Shown here one piece after another: positions 28,693 through 62,954 of a DNA stretch of 64,000 nucleotides. The first letter of the stretch is position 1; every line of letters starts with the position of its first letter. Source of the DNA: Malacoraja senta (lineage: Eukaryota); the NCBI GenBank assembly GCA_038087875.1, contig CM075988.1:8930001-8994000 (forward strand), given 5' to 3'. Made by a program: the position numbers and the translations under genes. Under the pieces are notes generated by a model. It ran no database searches, was not told where the DNA came from, and worked only from the letters and a program-made list of their open reading frames with translations.

Positions 28693-28738
28693 TTTAAACG
28701 ATACAAAAATGGAAATAATAATAACATTGTTTTTGTAG

Positions 28739-35859: not shown

Positions 35860-36570
35860 AATTTATAAGCTGCCCAGCGAAATATGAGATGCTTTCCTCC
35901 AATTTGCGTTAGCCTCACTCTGACAATGCGGGAGACCCAGGGACAGAAAGGTCAGTGTGGAATGGGAAGGAGAATGAATGTGTGTAGCAACTGGGAGATC
36001 AGGTTGGTCCAGGTGGACTGAGCGAAGGTGTTCAGTGAAACGATCGCCCAGTCTACCTTTGGTCTTGCCGATGTATAAGAGTCCACATCTTGAACAACGG
36101 TACAGTAGATAAGGTTGGAGGAGGTGCAAGTAAACCTCTACCTAACCTGAAAGGACTGTCAGGTTAGTGTCAAGTATACCGAGACACAGTGGACAGAGTC
36201 GAGGGAGGGGTAATAGGGACAGGTGTGGTATCTCCTACGGTTGCAGGGGAACTGGGATGGGGGTGGTTTGGCGTGGGAAGGGATGAGTTAAGCAGGGAGT
36301 TGCAGAGGGAACAGTCTCTGCAGAAGGCGGAAAGGGGGTGGAGTTGGGAAAATGTGACTAGTGGGTAGGATCCTGTTGGAGGAGGCGAAAATGTCGGAGG
36401 ATTATATGTTGTATGCGACGGTTGAGGACTGGGGGGGTTTCTGTCCCTGTTGCGACTACGGGGAGGGGGAACAAAGGCGGAGCTGCAATGGATACAGTTG
36501 ATGAGGTTGGAGGAGGTTGCAAGTGAACCTCTGCCAACCTGAAAGGACTGTCGAGGTCCCTGGACAGAGT
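35860..36570 (-). mobile_element. Penelope-like retroelement GIY-YIG endonuclease remnant
   Basis: CSRCGLLYIGKTKGRLGDRFTEHLRSV...LPVATH motif; partial internal duplication (about 36111-36160 and 36503-36550). Confidence 0.85.
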
Positions 36571-41063: not shown

Positions 41064-41277
41064 GTGTAGGAAGGAACTGCAGATGCTGGTTTAAACCGCA
41101 GATAGACACAAAAAGCTGGAGTAACTCAGCAGGTCAGACATCATCTTCAGAGAAAAGGAATAGGTAATGTTTCGGGTCGAGATCTGAAGTAGGGTCTCGA
41201 CCCGAAACATCACCTATTCCTTTCTCCAGATTTGCTGTTTGACCAGCTGAGTTACTTCAGCTTTTTGTGTCTATTAT
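41064..41277. mobile_element. Penelope terminal-repeat foldback insertion
   Basis: Near-palindromic arms centred near 41180; 9-bp TSD aaaagtgat (41055-41063, 41278-41286). Confidence 0.8.
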
Positions 41278-41370
41278 AAAAGTGATAATATTTCTGGGAA
41301 AGGCCTGGAAGAAGGAAGTTTGTCTGAACAACCTATTGCACATCAGTAGCTGACATAAATAGAAAGGTTA

Positions 41371-41539
41371 GGTAGTCACAAAATGCTGGAGTAACTCAGC
41401 GGGACAGGCAGCATCTCTGGAGAGAAGGAATGGGTGACATTTCGGTTCGAGACCCTTCTTCAGACCTCTGCATTGATATTAAGACATGATATTAAGATAT
41501 GAAGGACCAGTATCTGCAGTTCTTTCCTACACTTTCTAC
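41371..41539 (-). mobile_element. Penelope terminal-repeat insertion
   Basis: pLTR-type sequence flanked by 18-bp direct repeat acataaatagaaaggtta (41353-41370, 41540-41557). Confidence 0.8.
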
Positions 41540-43796
41540 ACATAAATAGAAAGGTTAAATGGGAGAGGCAGCTATTACACTCAGAGCTTTTGTTCCCAAA
41601 GCGTTATTCCTTTTCATTGGTGGGGAATCACAATGTTGTTCCCACACTGTCTTCAACCATTCAATGCATTGTATATTTAATACATGTACAAGTGTTGCAT
41701 GCATCAACGTACCTGAATTTGATATAGTAAATGTACATCCAGTCAGTGGCATGTGGAGTCCCCCAATCGCTGACATTGTCCTGACTGAACTGGTGAAAGC
41801 ATGAAGGCTACTCTGAAACATTAGTTTGTACTTTTTGTGTCACACTCAGCTTTGCAGTTAATATCTAGTAAAGGCAAAGATGACTGGCTGAAATTGGGCG
41901 TGACTGATGAATAGTGCATCATAAACACAGATGCATCTGCCCATGAATCCCCAATAGTTTGGGGGTACAATGCACACCAGTCACTGTCCAATTGCAATCC
42001 AACCTCATTCCACTCATTGTTCATTAGGCTGGGGAGGTTGTGTGACCAACTCTCACACACATTATTTATAGTTGATATGTCAATATGGCTTCCTTCCCAC
42101 TGGAAATAAAGGCAAATGCTGGCTATTCCTCCCTCTTGCTGCTCACTACAGTGAAGCAGTCCAATCTGGGGACTCGCAACTTTGATCATTATAGTTTCAT
42201 ATCTCACAAACTGATGAATGAATGAATTAAGAAATATTTTAAACCATCACATAATATGTTAATCAATAACAACAGTTTACCAATAACTTGTCAAATTGGC
42301 CACATTAGTTGGTGGTTATGTCTTAATATCAGAGGACTGATATGTATGAAGATGTCTTTTACTAGTTTGATTTGATTTAACTAACAGGAACTTAATATCG
42401 TAAAATGTTTCTTTATACAAAAACTGGAAAAAAAACAAGTAAATAACTGACAGGGATCTTTCCATTGCAGCTCTTAACATTGGCTCCCGACTGCTGTTCT
42501 GCCTCAATCTGATATTGCAGCCTAAACAATGGAATAAAATTCCTTGGAGTAAATAATCTCACTCTGCTTTCTTTCTGAGTCATATGGGCTGTTGACGCCC
42601 AAAGTACAACCCTAAATAGGTTGCTCTCATTATTAATATTTAATCTATAAAGAACATATCCTTCACTATTGAAATAATTAAGATGTAAGAATTTTCATGC
42701 ACTTTGATTTTTTTTTCAAAATTATTTATTTTTATAATTGATGATAGATTAAACAATCTTTCAACAAGCTCCACTATGAATTTTGCAAATCAATATCATT
42801 AATCTTTACAGTAAACTGTTTACCAGACAATTCTATTGTCTTTTCTTTAATGTGCTTTTCTTTTTTTCAATACAATTAATAAATCGTTCAGAATTGACAA
42901 TTCTGAATGTTAGAAAAATCAGGTTATTGATGTTAAGTTTTTCATTTAATCTCTAATCTTTGATATATTTTAGTTGATTTAGAAAGGCATTTTCCTGTCT
43001 TAGTCTTTCTCTTTCCCCACTGTTATTAAGCAGAATGAATCTTAAGCCAAATTGCTTTTTGATTCGCCTTGTTGAATTGTACTTTCTTCATTGGGCTTGG
43101 GATTTAGAAACATAGAAACATAAAAGGTAGGTGCAGGAGTAGGCCATTCAGCCCTACGAGCCAGCACCACCATTCAATATGATCATAGCTGATCACCTAG
43201 AATCGGTACCTTGTTCCTGCTTTTTCCCCATATCCCTTGATTCCGTTAGCCTGTATGTTACAGGCTCACCTGTTTTGATTATTATGTGATATTTTAAATG
43301 TACATCTGATAAAGTTTATTTTGTTAATACAATAGTTTTCTATTTCAAAATGTTATTTTGTCAAGATGAAGAATATTTGTAATGATAGAGGAAATGTTCC
43401 ATTTGATGGTTTAGTATCCAGGTACAAGTTTAACTCAGTTTGCTTTAAACTTCAATTCTTCCATCACTGTTACATAACTTCAAGCTCAAGTGCTAGATTT
43501 TTTAATGTACACTTTTACCATGTTGTGGTCTGTCTGAGTAAGATCAATGAATGATTACTTTATTATCCATCTCAATGAAGAACTGGACAATATATCTGAG
43601 TAAGATCAGTTAGGGGCTATTTTACTATCCAGTTCAATGAAGAACTAGACTGTGCAAAAGAGCCTCTACAGATGAGCAAAATGTGACTTCTAATGGAACT
43701 AATCTGGGATGATTTTGTTTGCAAAGACATATTCTGATGTGAAAATAGATATAACTGAATGTTGTTCAGTTAAAGAAGATGTATTTCTTTTTTCAG

Positions 43797-44484
43797 AGCT
43801 GATGGTGACTTATTTACAGAAGCATATCCAGGTACAGATGGAATTGATTACAGCTCGGGAGAAGAGCTGGCATTTACTGAAGAAGAAAATACCAATGTTG
43901 AAGAACGTGTGGAGATAACCCATGAGGAAACTCAAAGCAGAATGGGAACCAGTAGCCTCCATTCAACAGTGAAGGATGGCACTACAGAGACTAACATTTG
44001 CGCTGCAGAGCTTGGCTCCCCAATAGGGGTAGAAAACATTACTGCAGATGCAGACATCTGTAGATCAGAACTCCAGTCAGTCATGAAAGAAGACAATAAA
44101 TGGGAGCCAGACATGGCCACTGAGATGGCTGGACATGATATCTGTGGGACTGAGTTGGATCAGAAAGATGTCTTTGAGGCTACATCTGGTAGCACTGCGA
44201 ATGTTGATACTGAACCGGGCTTTGTAGAGAGAAAGGATACTAGCCACGAAGATAACAAAAGCAATGAGATTGAGATTAAACCTCAGGATGAACCTGCAGA
44301 TAACACAGTAGAAGAGGCAGCACACCAGCATGAGGTTAGTGGAGTGCTGACTGATAGCCAAGATCAGGAAAATGTAGATCAGAAACACACTGAAGTTATT
44401 ACAGAGGCTGATCTCGAAGGTAATGAAAATCCATCCACAGAGGAGAGCCGGAGTGCTGAGGAAGGCAGCAATATAGTGGAATAA
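43797..44484 (+). CDS. SPA17: SPA17 terminal acidic exon
   Basis: tttcttttttcag acceptor in phase 2, matching the IQ-exon donor; 228 open codons (ADGDLFTEAYPG...EEGSNIVE*), in frame with ORF 43909-44484; AATAAA at 44480-44485 overlaps the stop. Confidence 0.75.
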
Positions 44485-45911
44485 ATATTCACGTTCCATA
44501 GTCCATTAGTAGAGGCAAGTATAACTTTGAAATATCTGGGCTATCATTGATGAAAAGACAAAATATTTAATAAGTATAATCAAAATCTGTAGATGGCAGA
44601 TCTGAATTTGCTGGTGAGGTGTTTGCATGTTCACTGTATGACTGCCTGTGTTACCAAAGATGCTGCTGGTAAATGAATTGGCTGTTGCAAATTACTCTGA
44701 GTGTAGATGAAAGGCAGTAGGATCAGTCGGGAGTTGGACTTGTGAATGAGAATAGATTATAGGGAATTAAAGTTCCTGGATTGACCAAGACATCCTTATA
44801 GCACCTCCCTGTGTATGGAATTCTGATATATTGTGATGAGCCATGGTGTCTAAACCATCGAGTGCCTGAGTTACCTATCCTAACCATTATGTTAATGGTG
44901 CCTGTCTGATATTGTACCTGCTTTCCAATAGTCATCTTTATCTCTCATTAAATAGCCCTGCCTTTACTCCACTCTTTTCAAAAAGTACGAACACATCTCC
45001 ACCCTAACCTTTCCATCCAGTGTTGTAAAACATACTTCCCAGATTCATGCCTATGTCTTTTTTTTTCCATTTCCTCTATTCGTTATCTGGCATTGCCAAT
45101 GTACTGAAAATCTCCGCATACCTCTGATCTGAATTACCTTCATTATCAAGAGTCAAGAGTGTTTAATTGTCACATGTATCAGGAAACAATGACATTCTTA
45201 CTTGCTGCAGCTTTACTGGTGCATTAAATGCAACAACACAACAAACAAATATACAATAAAGTATTAATTCATTCATCATTTATTTTAGGTAAACTGGACC
45301 AAGCTAAATGTGCGAGGCCACAGATAGTCAGAGATGTGTCAATTTTGCTTGATGTTAGGTCTATGTTCTGAAATGTCATTGCAAACATGTGGTCTACCTG
45401 ATCTATCACACAGGTGTACCACTTAAGCATGCTGGTGATTTAATTTCAATTAAACTGATAAGGAAAGTTGGACATCTACTACAGGGGTCATGGATCCATG
45501 CTTTCCTTCCAGTTCCTTGGAGCTTCAGTCCATTGATGGTGAGATACATTTGGACATGCACAGTATCTCTAATAGCATACAGTTAATTGTTACATGTCAC
45601 TTCCGTGATTTTGGTCCATGCTTGCATGGATTTTGAAGCACATTGACCACCTATGCAAGTTAGGTATTCTATGATGTGATTTAAAGAGAACCTAGCAAAT
45701 CATGTGACAGTGTAAGTGAATCGTTAAGTAAGATGCCTAGCCCTTGTGAAGATTTCCAAAGGTCTCGCATCTCACTTCCCTGGTTGTAACCTCAAGCTGT
45801 ACCTTCACATCCCTCAACTGACTGCGACCTCCCTTAATCCCTACCCATCCCTCAAGATCCCGATCCTCCTTGACTAATACTTCCTACTCTAATCTCCAAC
45901 CACCAAGCACT

Positions 45912-46350
45912 TCATGCTCAGTCCGTCTTAACCTAACTGAACTCCCGGTTGCTCAGCACTTCAACTCCCCCTCCTATTCCCAATCTGACCTTTCTGTCCT
46001 GGGCCTCCTCCATTGTCAGAATGAGGCCCAGCGCAAATTGGAGGAACAGCACCTCATATTTCGCTTGGGTAGTTTACACCCCAGCGGTATAAACATTGAC
46101 TTCTCTAACTTCAGATTGCCCTTGCTTTCTCTCTCCATTCCCTTCCCCTTCCCAGTTCTCCCACTAGTCTTACTGTCTCCGACTACATTCTAACTTAGTC
46201 CCGCCCCCTCCCCTGACATCAGTCTGAAGAAGGGTCTCAACCTGAAACGTCGCCCATTCCTTCTCTCCAGAGATGTTGCCTCACCCACTGAGTTACTCCA
46301 GCATTTTGTGTCTACTTCGATTTAAACCAGCATCTGCAGTTCTTTCTTAC
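45912..46350 (+). mobile_element. Penelope-like element 3' end: GIY-YIG C-terminus followed by terminal repeat
   Basis: LPVAQHFNSPS...LGLLHCQNEAQRKLEEQHLIFRLGSLHPSGINIDF, then ctgaagaagggtctcaacctgaaacgtc. Confidence 0.88.
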
Positions 46351-46354
46351 ACCT

Positions 46355-47350
46355 TTATGCCTTGTTGTTCCTCGATTCATTTCTCTGCAACCGGATCCTC
46401 AACTTCCTTATCGGCAGACCTCAATCAGTATGAATTGGCAACAACACCTCTTCTTCTTTGACCATCAGCACAGGTGTAATTCGGGGCTTTGTGCTTAGTA
46501 CCCTGCTATATCTTCTCTATATCTGTGCTGTAAGACACAGCTCCAATGTCAAATTTAAATTCGTCAATGACACCACCATCATTGGATGAATAACAGGCAA
46601 TGAAGAGTCAAAGTACAAGAGTGAAATCGACAATGAAGTTGAGTGGTGGCAGAACAGCAGCCTTGCAATCAACTAGCAAGACCCCGTAGCTGATTGTTGA
46701 CTATGGGAATGAAAAACTGATGGTGCATGCACAAGTCCTCATTGACGGGATGGTGGGATAGTTTCAAGTTCCTGGACGTGCAAATCCCTGCTGATTTGAC
46801 CTGGGCCCAGCACATTGATGCAATCACAAAGAAAGCTCCCCAATGCCTCTACTTCATCAGAATATTTAAAGAGATTTGGCAAATCATCAAATACTCAATC
46901 AAACTTCTACAGGGTGTATTGTGGAGGCTATACTGACAATTTGCATCATGGCCTGGTTAGGAACTATGAACATGCAAGAACAAAGGAAGTGATGGACATT
47001 GCTTGGACCATCTCGGGTACTGACCTCCCCATCATCAAATGGATCTGCAAGAAATGCTGCCTCAAGAAGGTAGTAAATATCATCAAAAACCCACACAACC
47101 CACTTTTTGATGCTACCAGCAGGAAGAAGATATAGGAACCTGAGAAGTATTATATCCAGCTTCAAAAACAGATTCTTTCCATCAAGCATCAGGTTCTTGG
47201 ACCACCCTGCTCAACTCTATCCACAACCCTAGCTCAGCCACCTCAATATACTTTGTTTTTGTGCACTACTTTGAATCACTAATCATTTATTGCATATATA
47301 TTGTTGTTGTGACTACAAAGCTGCTGCATTGTGCCTGTGTGCCTGTTCAT
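46355..47350 (+). mobile_element. Decayed Rex1/Babar-type LINE RT
   Basis: KFVNDTTIIG (degenerate KFADDT), SFKFLDVQIPADLTWAQHIDAITKKAPQCLYFIR, SFKNRFFP motifs across frameshifts. Confidence 0.75.
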
Positions 47351-47593
47351 ATCTAGTGCATAAACACTCTTGAGCAAAGTCTCTTGACTTCTCTTCCAAC
47401 CAAGACGTACAGACACATCTAACTGCCCACTTTTATTTTCCTTCACAAGCCCTACTATGATGCATAATCAAAGCAATGTTGGATTGGAGCTGGCTATTAG
47501 TACATACACTAATTAAAAACTGATCAAGGCCACAAACACTTGTGTAATACAAAATATGCTGGACATGTTCCTTTCTTGTTTTTCCTTTTGTGT

Positions 47594-47767
47594 GCAGGAA
47601 GGAACTGCAGATAGACACAAAATGCTGGAGACAGGCAGCATCTCTGGAGAGAAGGAATGGGCCATTTTTGGGGTCGAGACCCTTCTTCAGGTCGGAAACG
47701 TCACCCATTCCTTCTCTCCAGAGATGCTGCCTGTCTTGCTGAGTTACTCCAGCATCTTGTATTTCTC
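47594..47767. mobile_element. Penelope terminal-repeat foldback insertion
   Basis: Inverted arms; 11-bp TSD tccttttgtgt (47583-47593, 47768-47778). Confidence 0.8.
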
Positions 47768-49804
47768 TCCTTTTGTGTAATTTGTTGGTGTGGCAACGGT
47801 GTGAATTGACAGCACTTGAGATCTATCTACCTCATCAATTATTTGACCAGTGACAGTTAAATGCATGCAATGTTGCAAATTTTGAGACGATGCAGAATAA
47901 GGATGCGACACGTCCACACGTTGTTACGCTGACTTTACAGTATTTCCTAAATTTGCTTTGCAGCTCTGATTTTGGAGTCAGTCAGTCATTCTATTTAGGT
48001 GAAAGATGGACATGAAAATCATTATTGGTGCAGAGTAAACTGCAGATGAGTGCACATATTTTGTGAGGATTCAGAGCTTGATGTGGTGGGGTTGCATACT
48101 AAGAATTTAATATAACCCCAATGTCCTCCACCACTACCTTTTTTCAGAATACCTTTGTGTAAGATTGCTGAAGGTGAAAATTTTCTCTGCAGTTATCGTG
48201 GCGTAAAGCATGAAATCAGACTTTCCGGTCCACCGTCTGTGCTGGTCATCAAGCACTTATGTACTATAAAATCTTGCACTAATCCCATATTCTTTTCCCC
48301 ACATTCTCATCAACCCCACCCCGATTCCTCTACTCACATACATACAAGGGCCAATTAAACCACTGTGGCCAATTAAACCACTGTGGCCAATTAACTGTGC
48401 ATCTTTGAGATATAGGAGAAAAACAGAGCACCCAGAGGAAACTCATGCAATCACAGGGATAACATGCAAACTCCACACAAGCAGCACCAGAGCTAAAGAT
48501 CAAAAGCCGGTCGCTATAGGTGGGAGTTATCTGCGCTTGGTGTTATCCTAGTTTAGTCATTAAGTTAATCTTACCATGATAAATTGTGTGTGCATAACAC
48601 TAAATTTGTAGGAAGTAGAAGGAAAGAGATATATTTCTCGGGCACGTTGTGTGATATCATGAACTAGTTAGAATCCCAAGGTGACATTTTTCTTCTTTAG
48701 GTGACAACAACTCACCTTGCACCAAATGTGCTCGAAAGTAGTAAGAACTTTTAATCTGCCTCTCAATGTAGCAGAATTAGAAATGTTTTCTTTTAATACA
48801 ACTGTTTTGTTTACTTCATCGTGTGAATCTTGTATGTATCAGTAGAATTGACAGGCTGTTCACTTTGAAAATTCCCACAATTAAGTAGCTAATCATCAAA
48901 GTCCTTGGGAAATGTTATCCTTTATTTTGAGACAAATTCTTCAAACTATCAGTTTCATAGTCCAATAATGTAAGCAAATAAACAACTATAAAAGATTTTA
49001 AGTATATACTGGATTTCGGATTTATAATAAGTAAAGGTGATATTTGATTTCATTTTGAACTCTATCTGAATATAAGATAAATTATTTAAAGCTTTTGAAA
49101 TATAATAATTAACCACCAATTACAGCAAATCTTCTTTATTCTTTCAAATTTTCTATTGAATTTGCCTTTAAACTGAAAAAGAAACAATGAGGACAGTGTC
49201 CTAGTTGCAATTAGGTGTTACACAATTGCTATCTTAGCAGGTCATGCTGTTATTTTCAGGAGCTCCTTACATAGGAGTCCTTCCAGTTTGGTTAATTAGT
49301 GTAATTAAACCATCTGTTATTTTTTTGTATAGTCTCATCTCTGTTTCTTCCAATTAAGACATTAGAAATATAATTGACAAGAAAGACGTTCAATATGACT
49401 ACTTGACAAAGTAGTTGTTGGAGGATGCTGTACCTTTGAATTAACTATGCTACAAAGATTTCTCCCACATTTTCATAACAAAGCATTCAATTATAGATGG
49501 CAGTTGAATGCATACCGTGAATGAAGAGGGCAGATTCTATTGTAGGTGGCTGGATATTTAATTAACCATATTAGCTGGGGTTTGGAGAGTCCAGAGATTA
49601 GAGTTACCCTGGTTCAGAAGGGCAGAGGCACTGAGCTTTGAAAAAATTACGAATGATTTATGTAAAATTGATATATTTTTGTTCCAAATTATTTGCTGAT
49701 AATATGGTGAGTTTATTTACTGTGTTTCTTACTGAATATGTAATAAAGTATTCAATATCTTGATTACAAATTGAATGTTGGTGTAAGTATTTTCATTTTC
49801 TCCA

Positions 49805-50165
49805 GAAACAAGAACTGCAGATGCTGATTAATACACAAAGGGACACAAAGTTGCTGGTCAGGCATCTGTGGAACACAAATCCATGTTCCCGTCTGATGAA
49901 GAGTCTTGACCCGAAACATCACCTGTTCCTTTTCTGAGTTACTCCAGGATTTTGTGTCTACCTATCCATTTTCGCGCAGATGCTGTCCAACCTGCTGAGG
50001 TACTTCAGTCTGAAGAAGGGTTTCGGCCTGAAACGTTACCTATTTCCTTTGCTCCATAGATGCTGCTGCACCCGCTGAGTTTCTCCAGCATTTTTGTGTA
50101 CCTTCGATTTTTCAGCATCTGCAGTTCCTTCTTTAACACGAGGTACTTCAGCATGTTGTGTCCTT
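49805..50165. mobile_element. Nested Penelope terminal repeats
   Basis: Copy 50009-50139 with 12-bp TSD gaggtacttcag (49997-50008, 50140-50151) inserted in an older copy. Confidence 0.8.
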
Positions 50166-50206
50166 TTACATGTTCTCTATATTGCTTTCCTCTGTGTGTC
50201 TCAACT

Positions 50207-50740
50207 TTACTTTAGACTTGAGAGATACAGCGTGGAAGCAGGCTCTAGGGCTCACCAAGTCTGCACCGACCAGCAATTATCCTCGTACTATCCTACACAC
50301 TAGGAACAATTTACAATTTTTACCAAAGCCAATTAACGTACAAACCTATAGGTCTTTGGAGTGTAGGAAGAAACCGGAGCACCGAGAGAAAAACCACACG
50401 GTCATTGGGAGAACGTACAAACTTCATACACCCATAAGGGCCTGTCCCACTTTCACGTCCTATTGACGACCTTTTTTACTCGGGGACATTTTTCATCATG
50501 CTAGAAAAACGCCCCGACCTGTTTCATGCCACGAGTACCTACGACTAGCATCACGACCTCCTACGACCTACCTACGACCTCCTACGACCTCGTGACGACC
50601 ATGCTGCGAGTATGAGTCAAGGGCAAACTCAGCAGAGGTCGTGAATTAGGTCGTGAAAGTGGGACATGCCCTATAGTCAGGATGGAACTCGGGTCTCTGG
50701 CGCTGTAAGGCAGTAGCTCTACTGCTGCGCCACTGTGCCA
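50207..50740 (-). mobile_element. HE1-like SINE interrupted by a MITE
   Basis: SINE sequence is continuous once 50437-50672 is removed. Confidence 0.8.
50437..50672. mobile_element. MITE, PIF/Harbinger-like (236 bp)
   Basis: TIRs agggcctgtcccactttcacg / cgtgaaagtgggacatgccct; 3-bp TSD ata; internal cctacgacct repeats. Confidence 0.8.
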
Positions 50741-52837
50741 CCTTATACCTTAGATGTAATGGGGCTGATGAGGAGAACTGGTTAGTCTCTACTGCTGCGC
50801 TACTGTGCCCCATGTTTGTGCACCTGTTTGCAGAGTGAGAATTTTTTAAATAGTTGAGCCCTATTTTAATTTGTGTCATAAGGCCAGCTGTGAACAAAAT
50901 CTAATTCAAATTCAAAACTTCACAGGATAGAATTGCCTTGGCTGAGTTTTGCAAAGTGACACCATAAACAAAACTTCACAAAACTGAGACAGGAAGCCAT
51001 GTGGAGTGATGAGCCATCCAAACACTCCTTTCATGCAAAGAAGGTACGTGCAAGAATCAAAAGCATCTTTAAAAAAGAGAAGACTGATGCTGTCATGGGT
51101 GATTGAATATTTCACAGGCTAGAATGGTACTGCAATGAGCTTTTTCAGGTGATTCATTTTGTGTATGATCCAGTGGAACTGATGAATAAGGACAAGGCAG
51201 TTTGCATGATAATACTGGGTTTGTGGACAGGTACATGGATAGCAAAGGTTTGGAGGGTTATGGACCAAAAGCAGGCAAACGGGACTGATTTAGATGGCAA
51301 CTTGATTGACATGGATGAGTTGGCCTGAAGGGCTTGCTGAAGGGCGTGCTGTATGACTCTATAACATCGGGTATGCAGAGGTTGATGACTTCACATGGTG
51401 AATAAAAGAGACGGTGTTTTTGGCTCAGTGCCATGGGCTGGTGAAGGAAATTCAGGCATGTATATAAATTACAGTGCACAGCCTCCAGTGTGCTAGAATG
51501 GCACAGATGTCCTGGACCACAAACTGTTATAGTTTTATGAAACCAACTGCAAATGACTCCTTGGTTGCTTAACTGATTCACCTGGTATTTAGGCTAATAT
51601 ATGAGAGGGAGGATAGGTTGAGATCAGGCACAGGAAGCAGTGAATTGGGATTGGGAGTGGGCATGAGCAAGTTCTTGTGGGTTTGGCTTTGCAAGCAAGG
51701 TATGGAAACCTATTGTGTTTGAGAGGGGTGGAAAGGTGAGATTTGGGGGAGTCATAAATAAGCAACAGGTAGAGGGATCATCAAGTGGGTATTGGGAGGA
51801 TTGATTTGTTTAAATGATCCTGGGCTCAAGGAAGCATTAAAATTATTAGTCATGGTACACAATTCCTTGCTTAGTGCTATGGTTTTAAGATCATGTTCGA
51901 AAATAGAACTTTGAACAGGACCGCACAAGAACAGGCCTTTCAGCCCACAATACCTGTACCAAACATGGTGCCATCCATCACCTATCTACCTGCAGATAAT
52001 CCATATTCCTCCATACCCATGTGCCTATCCAAAAGTCCTGTAAATGCCACTAACATGTTTGTCTCAACCATCAACCCCGCAACGAGTTCCAGGCATTCAC
52101 CACCTCTGTGTAAAAAAAACTGGCCCCACACATCTCCTTTAAATTTTCCCCCCTCACCTTAAAACCATATTATTTGATTTTTCAAACCTGGGAAAATGAT
52201 TCTGTCTACCTAATCTAAGCCTCTCATAATTTTAAATCAGGTGTATGTAAAATACTTCAAGAGTTTTATATACTTCTACGCCGCAATCTCCAACCTTCCA
52301 GAGAAAACATTCCTAGTCTTCCCAACCTCTCCCTGTGGTTAATACTCACGAATAGTAAGATTAAACGAGAACTTACCAGTTCGAAGTTTGATCATTATTT
52401 TATGAGGAGTACGTTGAGGGAATACGTGAAGAACCCCGCCAGGACGCATGCGTGTCATTCTTCAAAGCAGCGGTGTGAAATCACAGATAACTGTAATGAC
52501 TGAACATAGTAAGATTAGAAAAGATGATACCAGTTGAGTATATGATCAAGGGTGGGAGCGGAGGGCACGTATTCCCTCAACGTACTCCTCATAAAATAAT
52601 GATCAAACTTCGAACTGGTAAGTTCTCGTTTAATCTTACTATTTTACTTCGGAGTCACGTGAGTGACTACGTGAAGATTTCAAAGCTCTGTGATTTCATG
52701 CCGTGGAAACGAGTCCATGCATCACATCTGCCTTAATGACTATGGGAGGAATTGTGTTAACATGTTTAGACATGAATATGACATTGAAATCCATGATCCA
52801 TTAACACCAAATTATAGCCCCTATTTATGGGGTGAAA

Positions 52838-53768
52838 TTATATTACAGAACTTAAAATTGTTTCTGCAAACGTTCCAGATTTAATTACTGGTTTATGATA
52901 AAATAGTTGGAAAGGTTTCTCCGTTGACCATCCTGCTGTCTTGAGGATTTGGTCCATCAGAACATCCAACTGCATAGCTGCCGATGTAGCTGCAGCCCTG
53001 GTGGAATGAGATTTGAAAATGTTAGTATCCACCCCAGCCTTTAATAGAACCTGTTTCAGCCATCTTGAGATGGTCTGGACCGTCACTTTTTTGTGAGGTT
53101 GCTTGTGGCTGATTAATAGTGCCATCTCTTGCCTCTGATGATTTTCGTGTTCTCCATATATAGCAGTAAATGTCTTACTATACAGAGACGATCATCTGTC
53201 GGGTAAGCCCTAAATTCTATATTGAGGCCTGCTGACCCCTGTCTGTTCTGCTTGACTAATTCATAAATATGACACGTTATATTTACAGATGAAGAAGTCA
53301 TGTTGTCCAGTCTTAACTTATGTAATGACTGTACCCTTTGTGCCGTGACCAATGCCATCAGCATGACTGTTTTCAGTGTCAGTCTTTGTAGGGACAGAGT
53401 TTTGCTGGAGACCAATTCCTTAGCATCATCAGGACAATACTCACATCCCATATTTGGGAGTACCTGGTTCTTGGGGGATTGATATTAAAAATTCCCCTCA
53501 TAAGTTTTGTTACCAGGGGGTGAGTTCCAACAGAATGACGCTCTGTTCCTTGGTATAGATATGTTGACAGGGCACTTCTGGCGCAGTTGATGGCACTATA
53601 ACTGAGCCCATCATCGTAATGGAGGCCTGCCAGGAATTCCAGAACAGACAGGATGTTCATGGATGTGTAGGTGATGTTGTTTCTGTGACAGTACATCTCC
53701 CATTTCCTGATGTATACCAGGTACTGTTTTTTGGTGGACTGTCTGTGGGCCGCTGAAATAATGTTCAC
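52838..53768 (-). pseudogene. DIRS tyrosine recombinase, frameshifted
   Basis: LTLKTVMLMALVTAQRVQSL, TISRW, HSTRAAATS, AGWS, FY motifs. Confidence 0.92.
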
Positions 53769-53806
53769 TGTTCGGTCCGTCAGTCCCAGTTGCAGTAGAG
53801 GTACTT

Positions 53807-55961
53807 TTAGACTCTACAAATTAATAAGTTCATATGGTTATGACATGGGTGGCTTTCCCTTGTTACGGGATGAACCAGTAAATCTGGTCTATGCCAGATG
53901 GTGATGCATGGTTCTAATACCATGTCGAATATCACAGGGAACCATGGTTGAGCAGGCCAATCGGGTACTACCAAAATACCAGACGCAGAGTCTTGCTGTA
54001 TTTTCCTTAATACCCGACTGATGAGGCAGAAAGGAGGGAATGCATAAATAAACAATTTCCCCCCAATGCAGCGAAAATGCATCTGTCGCCGCTGCCCCAG
54101 GATCTGGTTCCCATGAAACATAGTTTGATAACTGGTGATTAAGCCTGGATGCGAATAGATCGATATCTGGTGTTCCATACCATGCTGTAATATCAGCAAA
54201 TACTTTTTTATCCAACATCCATTCGGTATTTTCATTAAATTTGCGTGACCTGGTGTCTGCCACTGAATTTAGTTTACTTGGTAGGTAAGTGGCTGATATC
54301 CAAATATTTTTCTGGATACACCATTGCCAAATTGTGTTGGCCTGCTTGTCACATGATATCGATTTGTTTCCACCCATGTGGTTGATATATGCTACCACCG
54401 TGGTATTGTCAATCTGTAGTCTAACATGCTGGTGACATAACCCAGAACAATATGACTTTAGGCCCTACAGCTGGAGATGGAATTGGTAGCACCCCAACCA
54501 AGTGCACTGGCATCCGTTTGTAGCACCATAGAAGGGTTGCTGATAACGATTGGATTGGAACAATGCTGACTGTTATCTGTCCACCATTTTAGTTCCATTA
54601 TGGCTTCGATTGGTAGCTTCATTAGTCTGTCAAAATGACCAGCATTAACTTTGAGTGCTCGTATTTTTGCCCTCTGTAAATTTTGATAATGTAAAGGTCC
54701 AAATTGTGTGGCTGGAAAGGCAGCCACTATTTTGCCAATTATTCTTGCTACCAATCTGATGGATGGTTTACTGATGAGGGTATTGCAAGCCTCTATTAAG
54801 GCTATAGCCTTTTCCTTAGGCAAAGTCACCAACATGTGAACTGAGTTAATGGTGAACCCCAAATAATCCATTGTGGTGGAAGGGTTTAATTTAGATTTAA
54901 CTGGATGGATGATAAACCCATTTTTTAAATAATTGTTTTGTGGCTGTTACCGTTTCTTTGGCCAATTCCAAAGTTTTGCCCACAATGAGGATGTCATCTA
55001 GTTATGCCATCACCATGTGTTTTTGTTTCCGCAGAAACGATAGAGCTGGTTTCAAAATTTTAGTGAACAGCCTAGGGGCTGAGGTTAGCCCATTTGGTAG
55101 TACTCTGTACTGCCAGAGCTGTCCCATCCAGTTGAATTTTAAATAACATCCGTGGTCACCTCGTATAGGGACTGAATAGTAAGCATCTTTTAAATCGATG
55201 CTAGCCATGAAGTAACCTTTGGAAATCAATTGTTTAGCAGTAACAAAGGTTTCCATTGTGAAATGAATATATTGTACAAAAGTATTCAAATTTGTCAAAT
55301 CTATGATGATGCGACAACACCATCTTTTTTGTTTTTTGGTAAAGATATTGGACACAAATTCCAGCGATTCGTGTTGGGTTTTTTCAATTAGCCGTTTTGC
55401 GTAAAGCCGCTCCAGTTCAGCATGTGCTTCTGATTTTTCTTTACCTGAAAGTACGAACATTCGGTTCGGTACATGCTGAACTGGAGGGCTATGTTTGTGT
55501 ATAAATTCTATGGTATATCCCTGGATACTGCTTAAAATATAAGTGTCTGTAGTTAACATACTCGATTCATCCAGAAAGAAGTGTAATCTCCCACCAACCT
55601 CCATACTCCCTGCAATTCGTAAGGAACCAGACCCACCTACCTCCATAGTTACCAGTGGCTGGTTTACTTCCTTTTGTGAATCCTTCATGGAGGTTGAGGC
55701 GCTGGCGTCTGGGTTTGTGGTTGGGTTGGCGTTGGGGGTTTGCGCATCTTCCACGAAGGCCGGTCTGGGCCATGGCCTAAAAAGACCCATGTGCAGTGTA
55801 CCTGGCCTTTGAGCTTTCACCAGTTTGTCTTGTTCTACTGGTGGGTGCATAAGGGTGCTGTTTATGACCATAGTAGGGTTTTGATGATGTCGCTTTGATG
55901 AGCCCCAGGGTTTTTGCCTCCTCATCGAGCTCTTTGACTTGTTTGGATAGGTTACCTCCAA
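53807..55961 (-). pseudogene. DIRS RT, RNase H and Dam-like methyltransferase domain, frameshifted
   Basis: VGGRL, RIIIDL, SIDLKDAY, LPNGLTSAPRLFTK, YLGF, TDASALGWGA, NSVADTRSR, DIDLFASRLNHQL, YAFPPF, PDWPAQPWFP. Confidence 0.92.
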
Positions 55962-56898
55962 ATAGTAAAATTGGTGGTTTTATGTTGCCAGGTTTGCACA
56001 GACCTGCAAATTTTGGGTTTAAAGCAGGTCGAATGGCACTCTTCCTGATGACGTTAATTTCGTATTGTGTATTACAGAGCAGTGCCAGTGCATCCTGTTG
56101 ATCCTGCGACATCTCCTTTTCATCTACTGTCCGGGCGAAAGCTGTTGTTCCCGTTGTTAGGAGCTTTAGTACTTTTTGGAGTTTGACATCCATGCCTCTA
56201 ACTCCTGCTCCGACGTGTTTCCATATGCAATTATTTACAATGGGAACATTCAGGGATGTACAGTTCCCAGGTGGCAAATGTCTTGCCGTGGTGTCCAATA
56301 TAGCCTGTTCCTGTAGCTGCTTAAATTACATATAGTCAATACTGGCAGCTAGTTTCGGTTCCAGGTTTCAGCCAGTTTGGTCTGGCTGTACGAATTGGGA
56401 CACCATGTCCAGTAGATTTTGGTCTTCCTGCACCCCATCGCACACTTGATGTTTGTTCTGGAAACCCCTCTTCAGGGTCAGCCCAGAATTGTCCCCCAGT
56501 ACTCCCCTCTGACGAGGGAGATGCACTGTGCAGACCTACAAGAGGTGCTGCTGTGGGTGTATTAAATTCCCACAGTGACTAGACTCCATCTCCCGGAGCC
56601 TGTCACGTTGGAGCATTTGCTCCATATGCCGCTCCATCCGGCTCCAGCGTTCAAGGTCGCTGGCCGCTCGCGGCTGCTCAAAGTCGGACTCATCCGAGTC
56701 AACGACTCTATTAGACTTTTGTATTGCCTTCCCGCCCGGCCGCGGTGTAGATCTGGCCGGTGCGGGGCCGAAGTCGGGCACAGCTGTTCCCATTACGGGT
56801 GATTCATGTGCCGCTGGCCGCTGCTGACTGCCCGCAACTCCGCGGTCCTCCCTCGCCAGCTTTGGAGCAGCCTTCTTGGTTTTCCTCGTTTTGTCCAT
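55777..56898 (-). pseudogene. DIRS ORF1 (gag-like), frameshifted
   Basis: ORFs 56536-56898 and 55777-56298; first ORF position downstream of the left ITR. Confidence 0.7.
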
Positions 56899-57754
56899 TG
56901 GAGTCTACACCTGTAAAACAGTATGTAGAACAAAAAAAGAACGCAGAGTATCACTTACCTGCAGTTCCTGGCTTTTGAATTTTGCCGCTGAGGGGAAACG
57001 TCGTTCCACCCGTGTGACTGTTTCGCAATGCGTGTAGCGATATGACACGCATGCGTCCTGGCGGGGTTCTTCACGTAGTCACTCACGTGACTCCGAAGTA
57101 AAATCCAGACATCATTCTGGTAACATGTTGTCTCGGGAGAGTTAACTGCAAGCCTACTGAAGATAAAGTAATCCAAGCACCTCTCCAAAAGGAGGAATGA
57201 CTTCACAATGTGGGGCCCTGGCATAGCATTCATCTCCGGACCACAGGGATGAATCAAGGCAGGAAATGCCCTGATCACATTTTCTGCATGACACAAAATG
57301 GCAGGATAAATGTATTTGTTCTGTTTCACTCCAGACACGCCACTTACATCAAACTGTGGAAAAAGAAGCCATGCAATCATATTTTCAGACAAAGGTTGCT
57401 CATTGCTGATCCCCAGTAGGTAGTTACACCTCACTGGATTAGAAACAACAATAGGATTCCTGTCTTATTTTAAACAACCATCAACATTGATTACATTTTT
57501 TTAATAGGCAGTTACATAACTGGTTGAAAACAAGTTATTAAACATCAAGGGGAAAAAGCAAGAGACTGTCTTGTAGAAAAAACTTGCTTAGGCTTGCTGG
57601 ACTACATAGCTAATTTGTCTTTTGATTTGGTACAATTTTATGTTGGATAGTGGAGGATGTTCTTAATGAGCAGGCACTACAAGCTCACCAGTCAGCAAAA
57701 AATCATTTTGGGGGAATTTTATTGATATTTTGCAAGCTGTATTTATAATACAAG

Positions 57755-58370
57755 GGCAGCACAGTGACACAGCTGGTAGAGGCTGCTGCCTCACAGTGCC
57801 AGCGACATGGGTTCCTTCCTGACTTTGGGCCTTGTCTATGTGGAGCTTGCACGTTCTCCCTGTGACCATGCGGGTACCGCCCCATGCTCCAGTTTGTTCC
57901 CTCATTCCAAAATCCTGCAGGTTTGTAGGTTAATGGCCTCTGTAAAAAAAATTGGCCCCAGCATGTAGGGAGTGGATACATTATCATCATCATCGTTGAA
58001 AACATCAACGGGCACGGTGCCTTACAATGCTGTGTACGACAATGTTCGCAACTTCTACTGAAGTGAGGATGGCTGTTGGTTTGCACGGAGCTCGTCCGCC
58101 CTTTGATAGGTTTTGGTTTTGGTCCTGCTGGGGGTCCACAGCCCCCTCCTCACCTGGCAAACCAGGTGGGGGAGATGGTATAGTGGCCGACTATCCGACT
58201 ATGTAGCAGGTAACACGGGATTACATGGTACACGTGGCAGTGGGAACTTCCCCCCGACCTCACCTTAGTGGATACGGAAGCGGGCAAACATTGAATTAGT
58301 GTGATTGGGTGATCGATGGTCAGCATGGACTCAGTGGGCCAAAGCACCTGTTTACATGTTGTATCTCTAA
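57755..58370 (+). mobile_element. HE1-like SINE split by an unidentified insertion (about 57983-58290)
   Basis: Head at 57755-57980, tail at 58290-58370. Confidence 0.65.
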
Positions 58371-58669
58371 AAAAAATAGTTCTGTTTACCTCAATGTTTC
58401 TGCTGTCTTGACCAAACCCTGATGATGCACTCAGCTATGGTGGCCACCTGTGCTGAATACTCTAATGTGCCATAGTCTAGACATGCATGGTGAAATTCCA
58501 AAGGTGCGGCTTCTCATTCCTATTGAAGTTGACCAAGTCATTGCCATCAGGAGAAAAATGAGAAATATAGATGTATTTATTATGTTGTATATGAATGCTA
58601 ATTATTCCGCGTCCTTTGTATGGTACCCCAGGTTGTATGAACATAGCTGAGTGATAGATAATCAATAGA

Positions 58670-60875
58670 TACATAGATACATAGAAAATAGGTGCAGGAG
58701 TAGGCCATTCGGCCCTTCGAGCCTGCACCGCCATTCAATACGATCATGGCTGATCATCCAACTCAGTATCCCGTACCTGCCTTCTCTCCATACCCCCTGA
58801 TCCCTTTAGCCACAAGGGCCACATCTAATTCCCTCTTAAATATAGCCAATGAACTGGCCTCAACTACCCTCTGTGGCAGAGAGTTCCAGAGATTCACCAC
58901 TCTCTGTGTGAAAAAGTTTTTCCTCATCTCGGTCTTAAAGGATTTCCCCCTTATCCTTAAGCTGTGACCCCTTGTCCTGGACTTCCCCAACATCGGGAAC
59001 AATCTTCCTGCATCTAGCCTGTCCAACCCCATAAGAATCTTGTACGTTTCTATAAGATCCCCTCTCAATCTCCTAAATTCTAGCGAGTATAAGCCAAGTC
59101 TATCCAGTCTTTCTTCATATGAAAGTCCTGACATCCCAGGAATCAGTCTGGTGAACCTTCTCTGCACTCCCTCTATGGCTATAATGTCCTTCCTCAGATT
59201 TGGAGACCAAAACTGTACGCAATACTCCAGGTGTGGTCTCACCAAGACCCTGTACAACTGCAGTAGAACCTCGCTGCTCCTATACTCAAATCCTCTTGCT
59301 ATGAAGGCCAACATACCATTCGCTTTCTTCACTGCCTGCTGCACCTGCATGCCTACTTTCAATGACTGGTGTACCATGACACCCAGGTCTCGCTGCATCT
59401 CCCCATTTCCTAATCCGCCACCATTTAGATAATAGTCTGCCTTCCCGTTTTTGCTACCAAAGTGGATAACCTCACATTTATCCACATTATACTGCATCTG
59501 CCAAACATTTGCCCACTCACCCAGCCTATCCAAGTCACCTTGCAGTCTCCTAGCATCCTCCTCACAGCTAACACTGCCCCCCAGCTTAGTGTCATCCGCA
59601 AACTTGGAGATGTTGCTTTCAATTCCCTCGTCCAGATCATTAATATAAATTGTAAATAGCTGGGGTCCCAGCACTGAGCCTTGCGGTACCCCACTAGTCA
59701 CTGCCTGCCATTGTGAAAAGGACCCGTTTACTCCTACTCTTTGCTTCCTGTTTGCCAGCCAGTTCTCTATCCACATCAATACTGAACCCCCAATACCGTG
59801 TGATTTAAGTTTGTATCCTAATCTCTTATGTGGTACCTTGTCGAAAGCCTTCTGAAAGTCCAGATACAACACATCCACTGGTTCTCCCCTATCCACTCTA
59901 CTAGTTACATCCTCGAAAAATTCTATAAAATTCGTCAGACACGATTTACCTTTCGTAAATCCATGCTGACTTTGTCCAATGATTTTACCACTTACCAAAT
60001 GTGCTGCTAATACCATCTTTAATAACTGACTCTAGCAGTTTCCCCACTACCGATGTTAGACTAACTGGTCTGTAATTCCCCGTTTTCTCTCTCCCTCCCT
60101 TCTTAAAAAGTGGGGTTACGTTTGCTACCCTCCAATCCTCAGGAACTACTCCAGAATCTAAAGAGTTTTGAAAAATTATCACTAATGCATCCACTATTTC
60201 TGGAGCTACTTCCTTAAGTACTCTGGGATGCAGCCTATCTGGCCCTGGTGATTTATCGGCCTTTAATCCATTCAATTTACCCAACACCACTTCCGGATAA
60301 CCTGGATTTCACTCAGTTCCTCCATCTCCTTTGACCCGCGGCCCCCTGCTATTTCCGGCAGATTATTTATGTCTTCCTTAGTGAAGACGGAACCAAAGTA
60401 GTTATTCAATTGGTCTGCCATATCCTTGTTCCCCATGATCAATTCACCTGTTTCTGACTGCAAGGGACCTACATTTGATTTAACTAATCTCTTTCTCTTC
60501 ACATATCTATAAAAACTTTTGCAGTCAGTTTTTATGTTCCCTGCCAGTTTCCTTTCATAATCTATTTTCCCTTTCCTAATTAAGCCCTTTGTCCTCCTCT
60601 GCTGGTCTCTGAATTTCTCCCAGTCCTCTGGTATGCTGCTTTTTCTGGCTAATTTGTACGCATCATCTTTTGCTTTGATACTATCCCTGATTTCCCTTGT
60701 TATCCACGGATGCACTACCTTCCTTGATTTATTCTTTTGCCAAACTGGGATGAACAATTTTTGTAGTTCATCCATGCAGTCTTTAAATGCCTTCCATTGC
60801 ATATCCACCGTCAACCCTTTTAGAACTAATTGCCAGTCAATCTTGGCCAATTCACGTCTCATACCCTCAAAGTTG
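58670..60875 (-). mobile_element. Relatively young 5'-truncated CR1/HER1 LINE
   Basis: Long RT frame 58763-60016 (QHGF, LDFQKAFDKVPH, GVPQGSVLGP, KFADD), two upstream frameshifts, tatctatg-type tail, possible TSD caataga (58663-58669, 60876-60882). Confidence 0.95.
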
Positions 60876-61989
60876 CAATAGAAGCAGGCTCAGAAAAAAT
60901 CCTGTAAAACCCCAGTAAATGCAGCGGTATTATAAACGATTAGAAGATAGCTAATTCTGAATTTCATCATTACATTGATTTCTAAACTGTGACAAATTTA
61001 GCCTGTAGTTCTTGAGTCACTGTGCTGAAATGGGGTTAGAAAATCAAGACACCTAATCTAAGCTGTCCAAAGGCTTCCTCTGAGAATGAGAAAAAAAAGC
61101 ACAGCATCTTTCCTGAGTCGCACTCTATAGGAACACTAATCACACATATGACTGATTTTGTCTCCTGAACAGACAAACCAGTGATGTGCCCATTTTATGG
61201 AAAATCATTTTTGATCAATATCCAACCAATATTCCAATATGCAGATCATGGGTTGCAGCTACACTGTAAAGAAGGGAATGAAATGTTATATGTTGAGCCC
61301 ATCCTCTCTGGACCTATGTCTATACTGTGAGTATCTTGATCACCCTCCCTTCTTCTCCCCAGAGCAAGGAGCCAGTGAGAAAGCACATTGAAGCAGATCT
61401 AAGTCACTTCCAAAGCAGGAGTTTGATTGATTGATTGAAAGTTACAGCCTGGAAACAGGCCCTTCAGCCCACCAAGTCCATGCAGACAATCGATCACGCA
61501 GTGAGGGAGAGCATGCAGACTCCACACAGGAAGCACCTGAAGTCAGGATTGAACCCAGGTCTCTGACACTGTGAGGCAGCAGCTTTACCAGATGCACTAG
61601 TTGATTTATGTCATAATCAACCTCTTGACGCATTTCATTATGGATCATGCCACCAGGGGCAACATGTCTCGCATCTCCTACACTGGCCATCACCTGGAGC
61701 TGGCAAGATTTGATACAACCATTAGGCTTACAGTACAGAGTGCCCCAGCCTGGCAAAGGCAACATAATTGCATCTTGGCGAGACTAGCAGCATTCTCTAC
61801 TATCATTGTCTTCCTTGTCCAGCTCTGGTATCTCCACTCGTCTGGTGTGGTGAGAGCAAAAACTGATGTGAGCAGCTGTGAAGCGGAGGGTGAACCTTGT
61901 GCCCCAGGTACTATCTATTGGGGTAATACTGGCCGATAAAAACATCCAGCAGCCCAGACTCCCTCAGGTAAAAGAATCTTGAGAACTGT

Positions 61990-62115
61990 TTTAGACTTTA
62001 GAGTTACAGCGTGGAAACAGACCTTTCAGCCCTCCAAGTTTGCACTGACCAGTGATCACCCCATACACTAGCACTATCCTACACACTAGGGTCAATTTGC
62101 AATTTTACCAACGTA

Positions 62116-62147
<32 letters not shown>

Positions 62148-62710
62148 TTATTTATTAGAAGTGCATTACATTACAACCACATACATTAATACTCGTCATT
62201 TGTATCTTCTTACAATTAATGTACTCCCTTTATTTATTTTTTTACACTAGAAAAGGAAAAGATTGAAAGAAAGAAGAAAGTGAAGGAAAAAGTGAAAGTG
62301 TAGAAAAGTGTAGAAAATGTAACAACAAAAAAGGACGAAGACCCTATAAGAGCGAAATTAAAAACAAAAGAAAAAGAGTTAAGAAATAGGCCCTAGGAAA
62401 AAAAAGAGAAAGAGAGAGAGGAAAAAAGAAAAGAAAAAACAAATATTTTTTTGAGCATTACGTAAATAGGACATACCAATTCTTCAACTATCATCCCCCC
62501 TTACCTGACCTCAATTTTTTTATTTTTTTTTAAGCTAATTAACCTACAAACCTGTACGTCTTTGGAGTGTGGGAGGAAACCGGAGCACCCGGGGAAAATC
62601 TACGCAGTCAAGGGAGAAAGCACAATCTGTACTGACACCACCGGTAATCAGGATCGAACCTGGGTCTCTGGTGCTGTAAGGCAGCAACCCTACTGCAGCG
62701 CCACTGTGCC
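61990..62710 (-). mobile_element. HE1-like SINE containing an L1 3'-UTR insertion (62115-62530)
   Basis: SINE halves flank a poly(T)-led segment closely matching 25620-26000. Confidence 0.85.
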
Positions 62711-62768
62711 GTTGAAAAGCATGGCATTCACCAATAGGAAATTCTCCTCCAGATCCACAACCAGCTGG

Positions 62769-62954
62769 TCACATAGTGCTGGAGTAACTCAGCAGGTCAG
62801 GCAGCATCTCTGGAGAACATGGATGAGTGACGTTTTGGCTCAGTACCGCTTCTCCAGACTCACGTGTTCTCCAGCGGTGCTGCCTGACCCACTGAGTTAT
62901 TCCAGCACTTTGTCTTCTTTTATGTAAACCATCATCTCCAGTTCCTTGTTTCTG
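62769..62954. mobile_element. Penelope terminal-repeat foldback insertion
   Basis: Inverted arms; 11-bp TSD caaccagctgg (62758-62768, 62955-62965). Confidence 0.8.

Follow-up and report, generated by a model that had tools for sequence, protein, structure and literature searches.

Short non-coding inserts in a 64,000-nt stretch of the genome of the skate Malacoraja senta (assembly GCA_038087875.1, contig CM075988.1, positions 8,930,001–8,994,000; hereafter the window, to which coordinates refer) are, judged by the features tested, 5′-truncated insertions of an endonuclease-positive Penelope-like element (PLE), and it is almost certain that they are stubs of PLE insertion. All five of the named inserts (A–E; 131–214 bp, without an open reading frame) are composed of one ~132-nt terminal repeat (pLTR) that carries a minimal hammerhead ribozyme motif, and the ends of such copies gather at the 5′ edge of this motif, not at its cut site. 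The best explanation as a whole, to which we assign a probability of roughly 0.7, is that the inserts are retrotransposed pLTR stubs arising from priming at two sites and run-off of reverse transcription at a capped RNA start. The structures themselves are of an already known kind, and the clustering at the 5′ edge, as a start site, is a modest addition: no paper on PLE mini-insertions in skates or sharks, or on 5′ ends clustering before the hammerhead, was found in the literature covered, with subscription papers, Repbase, and Dfam lying outside that coverage.

Identity and structure of the inserts

The element was identified from a reference copy, the 5′-truncated 3′ end of a PLE on the plus strand (45916–46352), in which the C-terminus of a GIY-YIG endonuclease (45916–46115) is followed by a pyrimidine-rich 3′ untranslated region (UTR) and a pLTR with tail (46221–46352). 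The tail comprises 38 nt (46315–46352), between two 3′ termini at 46314 and 46352. The 67 codons of the endonuclease end match skate proteins with 82% identity (E = 9.5e-25); a match to PF01541 (GIY-YIG) was obtained on homologues only, below the curated cut-off (E = 0.0008–0.008), and no Pfam match to the fragment itself. Protein scans for this end recovered one of 263 candidate stretches in metagenomes (L001) and no locus in viral contigs, while DNA pattern scans of viral, metagenome, and prokaryote collections and a phage blastn gave no match. No target site duplication (TSD) was found around the reference copy. The Penelope origin suggested in an earlier note on this DNA is borne out, the inserts being pLTR pieces of an element with a GIY-YIG endonuclease end.

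Exact flanking direct repeats, of precisely the lengths given in that note, were found at all five inserts (A, 9; B, 18; C, 11; D, 12; and E, 11 bp), as against repeats of at least 9 bp in 0.43% and at least 11 bp in 0.07% of 3000 random intervals, even with 6 nt of play allowed at either end. With the repeat numbered from +1 (46221) to the last tail position, +132 (46352), insert A (41064–41277; TSD 41055–41063/41278–41286) is a head-to-head foldback of a minus-strand arm with tail (41064–41182; +15 to +132) and a plus-strand arm without tail (41183–41273; +3 to +94). Insert C (47594–47767; TSD 47583–47593/47768–47778) is a foldback of a minus-strand tail arm (47592–47690; +4 to +132, with two internal deletions), 4 nt of filler, and a plus-strand arm (47695–47767; +24 to about +92), and insert E (62769–62954; TSD 62758–62768/62955–62965) one of a minus-strand arm (62769–62860; from −4 or +1 to +90) and a plus-strand tail arm (62861–62954; about +41 to +128). 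In insert B (41371–41539; TSD 41353–41370/41540–41557), a minus-strand arm (41371–41465; +2 to about +95) is separated by 40 nt of filler (41466–41505) from a plus-strand tail piece (41506–41532; +106 to +132, then 7 nt repeating the tail end); no source of the filler was accepted in the window, and its best match elsewhere in the window covered 14 nt. Insert D (50009–50139, plus strand; TSD 49997–50008/50140–50151) is a single arm ending at +132, nested within an older copy (F2) of the same repeat, and its start lies between −4 and +3, the exact point being masked by microhomology with the target.

Thus, the inverted pairs described earlier are found in three of the five inserts (A, C, and E), but not in B, whose arms do not overlap and share no sequence, or in the single-armed D. 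The same division holds for the proposed potential to form double-stranded RNA, which was assessed by folding only: a long hairpin is predicted for A (z = −17.4), C (z = −9.0), and E (z = −11.1), but not for B (z = +0.47). These scores indicate inverted arms only, not function.

The family, earlier counted as at least five members, includes all of these and is larger, a profile search finding 12 loci that occupy 1934 bp, or 3.0% of the 64 kb. Among the additional copies are foldback F (49804–49961; minus-strand tail arm 49804–49880, plus-strand arm from +2 at 49891–49961); F2 (49959–50170, plus strand), which starts near +32, follows F head-to-tail, and is split by D; a foldback at 5044–5261 (minus-strand arm from +4/+8 to +91, plus-strand tail arm from +1 to +125; a 7-bp candidate TSD only); copy G (10277–10376, minus strand), whose tail arm starts at about +36/+48 and is accompanied by a very short inverted piece; and an old two-armed copy, H (11689–11844), with arms from +41 and +44. 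The older extra copies have no TSD, or 7-bp candidates at most. F, F2, and D form a nested stack (49959–50170) in which D has microhomology to the element's own upstream letters. Around the 5044–5261 foldback the sequence is rearranged, the foldback sitting between two diverging pieces of an older GIY-YIG endonuclease gene (4905–5460; minus-strand piece 5033–4905, plus-strand piece about 5275–5457), neither of which ends in a detectable pLTR. The minus strand at 35866–36580 also bears an older, broken piece of a Penelope-like endonuclease, with no pLTR found behind it.

Among the two-armed inserts, the six best kept (A, B, C, E, F, and the 5044 copy) have their arms placed head-to-head, with one arm ending at +124 to +132 and the other at about +89 to +95, and the tail is confined to one arm in all six; the arm ends of B and F were read by eye, the automatic alignment having overrun into the flank. 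In A, B, E, and F the tail-less arm is complete and the tail-bearing arm shortened. All six junctions differ, and the arms, which are 62–90% identical in pairwise comparison, comprise several sequence-variant types, indicating that there is no master foldback.

Clustering of the arm ends

In the window, seven of 21 arms (automatically called starts) begin at −4 to +4 and one at +30 to +34, around the cut site, where 0.75–1.2 would be expected by chance; in six of the eight two-armed inserts, one arm or both start at −4 to +4. This start place of short copies, 46221–46223 on the plus strand (+1 to +3), is also the 5′ strand of hammerhead stem I. The breakpoints that the earlier note had placed at the motif thus gather at its 5′ edge, but not at the cut between +31 and +32, and since the inner ends lie ~30 nt upstream of that cut, ribozyme cleavage does not make them. 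As a scan, the clustering gives P = 0.005–0.025 with automatic starts and a null of −40 to +100, and P = 1.7e-4 with hand-called starts; the fixed-window P is 0.003–0.0002. By itself it is weak evidence, and the genome-wide contigs support it better.

These contigs came from four of 24 sequencing runs (three studies), of which X1 and X2 possibly represent the sample behind the assembly, and were aligned to 45860–46399 at 80% likeness, with 173,050, 106,417, 212,845, and 15,810 aligned contigs per run, showing the pLTR repeat to be very abundant in this skate. The loose-end figures below are drawn from the best 24 of 2670 rows and the joint figures from the best 15 of 546. Every run has 5′ loose ends at 46221 or 46222 (517, 401, 718, and 92, respectively), the flanks of which are long and mixed (agreement 0.31–0.34), together with 3′ loose ends at 46312–46314; 3′ loose ends at 46352 are seen in two of the four runs, and none among the best 24 rows falls at 46250–46254. 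All five head-to-tail joints among the best 15 land at 46217–46223, and four of the six opposite-strand joints have one end at 46219–46221. Both 3′ termini are marked by joints as well as loose ends, at 46312–46314 and 46351–46352. Across the genome, opposite-strand joints are of many different kinds, each in few contigs, and the head-to-tail dimer joint from 46352 to 46221 (14, 12, 15, and 1 contigs) is a minority form. The letter before 46221 is most commonly G in all three runs listing that row, compared with window frequencies of 21% for G and 29% each for A and T. Depth in run X1 reaches 24.9 million at 46292–46309 and 14.3 million at 46040–46057, the endonuclease end, so copies of that end are also abundant. 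In a look for editing, A>G places numbered 25 in run X22, presumably RNA but from another organism and pooling the family, and 15–28 in the other runs, a range that includes the X22 value. Overall, the view of the inserts as truncation and inversion products with non-random breakpoints, one of two offered earlier, is supported, best by these contigs.

Proposed mechanism

The element RNA would be a capped RNA polymerase II transcript beginning at about A46221, three bases ahead of the hammerhead core. The PLE protein would nick both strands of the target and extend both, with reverse transcription initiated at two internal sites on the RNA that are separated by a tail-length and lie 94 and 132 nt from where the RNA begins, such that priming in the 5′ pLTR would yield a "strong-stop-like" cDNA running off the RNA end. 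A single priming event would give a single arm of the D type, and priming on both strands followed by joining of the cDNA ends, through a template jump or end-joining, would give A, B, C, E, and F, the joining often trimming one arm or inserting filler. Every mirror image would be built afresh at insertion, and the copies would decay afterwards.

With respect to the cut, the ends are located 30 nt upstream, beyond the motif, a position that suggests a physical RNA end and not cleavage or a stall at a structure. A46221 is the A within both TCAGT and CAG, which are initiator-like and acceptor-like, respectively; the initiator-like TCAGT and the predominance of G before 46221 together point to a capped start at +1, and on balance we slightly favor such a start, at a position inferred in this way, as the reason for the clustering. 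At the junctions of full-length L1 copies, copying of the cap is marked by an extra G (PMC11702581); a rotifer pLTR carries TCACT (PMC3846280); and the pLTR of Drosophila virilis Penelope contains an internal, TATA-less promoter (PMC2377424). Priming on both strands is the probable source of the inversions by analogy with Poseidon from Anolis, the purified protein of which cuts and extends both target strands without need for hammerhead cleavage, insertion in vitro being unaffected in hammerhead mutants (PMC11167929).

Several observations weigh against the combination of PLE stubs, two-site priming, and run-off. The window holds no Penelope-like reverse transcriptase, and no full-length element was seen. 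Scanned with automatic starts under the narrower null of −20 to +70, the in-window clustering falls short of significance (P = 0.07–0.11), and among the held-out arms, that is, those not named in the earlier note, 2 of 12 start at −4 to +4 (P = 0.18–0.34). F2, at about +32, is the sole arm of 21 to start at about the cut site, and a joint from 46220 to 46253 (3, 1, and 10 contigs) ends beside that site, where reference-specific mismatches also pile up alignments (46253); a minority of copies may be made from cleaved RNA. The genome-wide figures represent the best-ranked rows and joints, and the alignment behind them pools subfamilies, with some differences not counted. A depth step of ~10-fold at 46220 was rejected as clean evidence, the 3′ UTR being diverged and depth rising again over the endonuclease; the loose ends at 46219 and 46264 are not taken to be true ends, their loose letters being subfamily variants; and the 46313/46314 peak is partly an indel edge. 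The G before +1 may instead have its source in inverted arms that did not align, and that of E is possibly a substitution. Finally, the commonest opposite-strand joint among the best 15, 46314–46346 (35, 29, 36, and 3 contigs), is tail-to-tail and unexplained by the model. At this joint an arm ending at +94 meets another arm near the tail end, perhaps because a new copy inserted at an earlier one's end or because foldbacks were chained.

Alternative explanations for the ends and inversions

That +1 to +3 is instead a 3′ splice site, the copies deriving from spliced RNA or a splicing intermediate, appears unlikely. A pyrimidine tract, CTGAC, and CAG (46200–46222) do stand just ahead of the core, and in D. 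virilis Penelope, the intron's 3′ terminus coincides with the 5′ terminus of helix I (PMC4209133), that intron lying 46 bp after the start site (PMC2377424). However, GT..AG ends into 46223 are found in none of the four skip-type joints among the best 15 of 546, and the loose letters before 46221 reveal no common exon (agreement 0.32–0.34). With just 305 nt of upstream sequence in the reference copy, this comparison would miss a donor lying farther away or a first exon of very small size.

An equally doubtful account has the inversions arise by self-priming (fold-back) of one cDNA, or by copying of an antisense transcript, as for rotifer Penelope, for which self-priming was proposed from junction palindromes (PMC3846280). 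Insert C, with its complete tail arm and second arm from +24, fits self-priming, and in A, E, and the 5044 copy the two arms have variants in common and rank among mutual closest matches (87, 80, and 80%, respectively). However, a cDNA from a sense template cannot supply the other arm's tail in A, B, E, and F, where the complete arm lacks the tail, so that a single self-primed sense-template cDNA is ruled out for these inserts; the non-overlapping arms of B and the only 62% likeness between the arms of F also stand against this route. An antisense template would still be compatible with A, B, E, and F.

Hammerhead motif

The type I minimal hammerhead motif (46224–46254, plus strand) comprises the core CTGAAGA (46224–46230) and an extra A, stem II (46232–46236/46239–46243), GAAA (46244–46247), and a palindromic CG, with the predicted cut between 46251 and 46252 (+31/+32) and a stem I of only 2–3 bp. 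All hallmarks are present, namely CUGANGA, the extra base, a stem II with G10.1–C11.1, GAAA, the palindromic pair, and UH. The descriptor matches twice in the window (46224 and 50010), compared with 0.01 times per shuffle, in agreement with the hammerhead-like core reported earlier, and we conclude, at the level of sequence, that the motif is real in the family. Stem II has Watson–Crick pairs at 3 of 4 positions in one of these matches and at 2 of 5 in the other, and the majority letters of the genome-wide contigs give a 5-bp Watson–Crick stem II. Covariance models gave the motif no corresponding recognition: Rfam returned no hit at the gathering score in the 64 kb, and the 11 weak hits over 40900–50300 at E ≤ 10 were mostly to miRNA hairpin models, with no hammerhead among them.

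The distant PLE end L001, from a metagenome contig, has one descriptor match, with a 5-bp stem I in which both partners are swapped at two pairs relative to the skate sequence. Stem I gives a covariation score of 0.34, matched by 1 of 500 shuffles, from nine rows that include one outgroup and in which some changes are letters of junctions and not of the element; stem II shows no two-sided change among the nine aligned rows. In L001 (1918–2300), an initiator-like TCAC directly precedes the hammerhead core.

It was also suggested earlier that the inserts may be a retrozyme-like non-autonomous family mobilized in trans. In such a family, paired hammerheads would cut short RNAs and the resulting circles would be copied in trans by the PLE protein. 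Besides the motif itself, F2, beginning at about +32, and the head-to-tail short-unit dimers found genome-wide speak for this idea, as the dimers would set two motifs 132 nt apart, and two spaced motifs are the defining arrangement of animal retrozymes (PMC7229834; bioRxiv 10.64898/2026.07.22.740005). Nevertheless, none of the five named inserts is a tandem, junctions are private and variants mixed, and the ends lie ~30 nt upstream of the cut, with the single cut-site start among 21 arms being at chance level. Either the core or stem II is disrupted in each of A, B, C, E, F, and the 5044 copy, and D and the reference are rescued by wobble pairs only, so neither of the two descriptor matches has a full Watson–Crick stem II. 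In the monomer, folded with majority letters, the hammerhead lies 4.4 kcal/mol above the lowest fold, with a stem II pair probability of ~0.02, and in a foldback transcript (insert A) the motif is predicted to be buried inside the long helix. In vitro, insertion of the Poseidon hammerhead mutants was likewise unchanged (PMC11167929). A retrozyme-like family is therefore very improbable, and nothing in the sequences suggests that the short copies are kept as active ribozymes; the head-to-tail dimers elsewhere in the genome could, however, be seeds of retrozymes.

A foldback of the kind of a miniature inverted-repeat transposable element, moved as DNA from one master, would account for short palindromes with TSDs and z-scores of −9 to −17, but can largely be dismissed given the six junctions in six inserts, TSDs varying from 9 to 18 bp, asymmetric ends (the tail), the continuity of the sequence with a retroelement endonuclease end, and the diversity of opposite-strand joints genome-wide, each in few contigs.

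SPA17 and other features of the window

The last coding exon of SPA17 (43798–44484, plus strand) is 94% identical to Leucoraja erinacea Sp17; the other coding exons lie at 1393–1464, 11487–11585, 18198–18302, 28721–29245, and 32478–32585, on the same strand. Of the location in and near SPA17 transcripts noted earlier, a place inside the transcript is supported only for A and B, as part of the last intron; C, D, and E lie 3.1, 5.5, and 18 kb past the stop codon, respectively, and A is the only one of foldbacks A, C, and E within the coding span. A candidate AATAAA is found at 45255, with C and D beyond it. A candidate acidic exon around A/B was rejected, having no match in any of the four SPA17 proteins tried. 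Skate SPA17 is extended to about 510–550 residues by two long acidic exons (28721–29245 and 43798–44484) flanking the IQ exon, and the same extension is found in rays and sharks.

Foldback F is common to Rhinoraja longicauda, with which it shares a deletion and, after a one-base shift, the junction residues, and it is old, given that the Rhinoraja gene model ends in an F-matching exon. In that model (predicted protein P0016), the last exon of SPA17 is spliced into F and the stop is the TGA of the hammerhead core; the window's F has a one-base frame shift relative to the model. The use of F as a SPA17 exon is possibly exonization or an artifact of automatic gene calling.

Among other repeats, the minus strand at 53113–56325 encodes a reverse transcriptase (PF00078) and a weak match to a tyrosine-recombinase N-terminal domain (PF13495), in what resembles a DIRS-type retrotransposon. 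Long interspersed nuclear element copies with reverse transcriptase (PF00078), presumably CR1/L2-like, lie at 58666–60889, 29465–31262, and 55–630, and L1-like pieces at 6912–8606 (zf-RVT) and 22773–26917. An unclassified GC-rich repeat that includes long (GA)n tracts is present twice (19778–21426 and 27144–28693), the copies being about 80% alike, and an assembly gap of 200 N spans 19905–20104.

Implications

The formation of inverted repeats and tails in PLEs has been called undefined (PMC8557442) and has been partly solved in vitro (PMC11167929). If the reading of these inserts as mini-elements is true, their junctions are a natural, base-resolution record of how both are made; should the short copies indeed arise by run-off from a capped start, two-strand priming can be tested directly on thousands of skate junctions, and insertion ends in vivo are set by something other than hammerhead cleavage. 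A repeat at 3% of the window can also seed intronic hairpins and new exons, of which SPA17 provides one candidate. More speculatively, in skates and other cartilaginous fishes, a Penelope transcript that starts three bases ahead of the hammerhead, with the reverse transcription sites only 94 and 132 nt away, might give rise to mass "strong-stop" mini-insertions, with copies that keep or regain a promoter forming a self-sustaining non-autonomous class and head-to-tail dimers seeding animal retrozymes; we regard this as a tentative proposal that is rather unlikely to hold in full.

Comparison with known systems

The inserts resemble published insertions of endonuclease-positive PLEs in their strong 5′ truncation, in the inverted 5′-truncated copy at the 5′ end, in the C-terminal GIY-YIG domain that precedes the repeat, and in a tail on one end only, 30–40 bp in those elements and 38 nt here (PMC3846280; PMC8557442). 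TSDs are 8–10 bp in the published insertions and 9–18 bp here (PMC3846280; PMC8557442). Unlike in those cases, the arms are reduced to the pLTR itself, about 12 loci occur in 64 kb, and the inner ends favor one place; in the parts of these two papers covered, solo pLTRs are mentioned, but clustering of inner ends is not (PMC3846280; PMC8557442).

The closest layout is that of Poseidon from Anolis carolinensis (PAc), which has the same succession of core, one extra base, stem II, GAAACGUC, and short stem I, and likewise two 3′ termini spaced by the length of a tail, with ACAC at the end of the far one (PMC11167929). The far start lies 82–89 nt after the cut site in PAc, by a hand count on the printed template, and 101 nt after it in the skate; the PAc open reading frame begins within the motif (PMC11167929). 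The text on PAc, the supplementary figures of which were outside the coverage, reports no clustering of 5′ ends (PMC11167929). With respect to clade, the likeness to Penelope/Poseidon is one of motif layout alone.

Minimal hammerheads of metazoan PLEs share the base between positions 9 and 10.1, the G10.1–C11.1 pair, and the palindromic 15.2–16.2 pair with the motif described here (PMC4209133). They are mostly single and dispersed, and pairs on opposite strands, 100–700 bp apart, have been known since 2014, whereas such pairs abut in the skate; stem I is 2–3 bp here as compared with 4–5 bp in Schistosoma, and stem II 5 bp as compared with 7–8 bp (PMC4209133). Animal retrozymes without long terminal repeats are also short and non-coding, with a type I hammerhead and a relationship to PLE pLTRs, but they are head-to-tail tandems of at least two motif-bearing units, whereas the inserts here are single or head-to-head (PMC7229834; bioRxiv 10.64898/2026.07.22.740005). 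Furthermore, the retrozymes described in 2020 have canonical, efficiently cleaving ribozymes and circular RNA, in contrast to the minimal, decayed motif known here from sequence (PMC7229834).

In L1 twin priming, each of the two segments usually copies a part of one RNA that the other does not. Here, unlike in L1, both segments begin at internal sites that are fixed, and the ~90 nt that they copy are the same. The likeness to L1 otherwise extends to the priming of a second cDNA by the second target strand, an inverted 5′ segment with a TSD and an end-joined junction, and an extra G at ends that reach the cap (PMC11702581).

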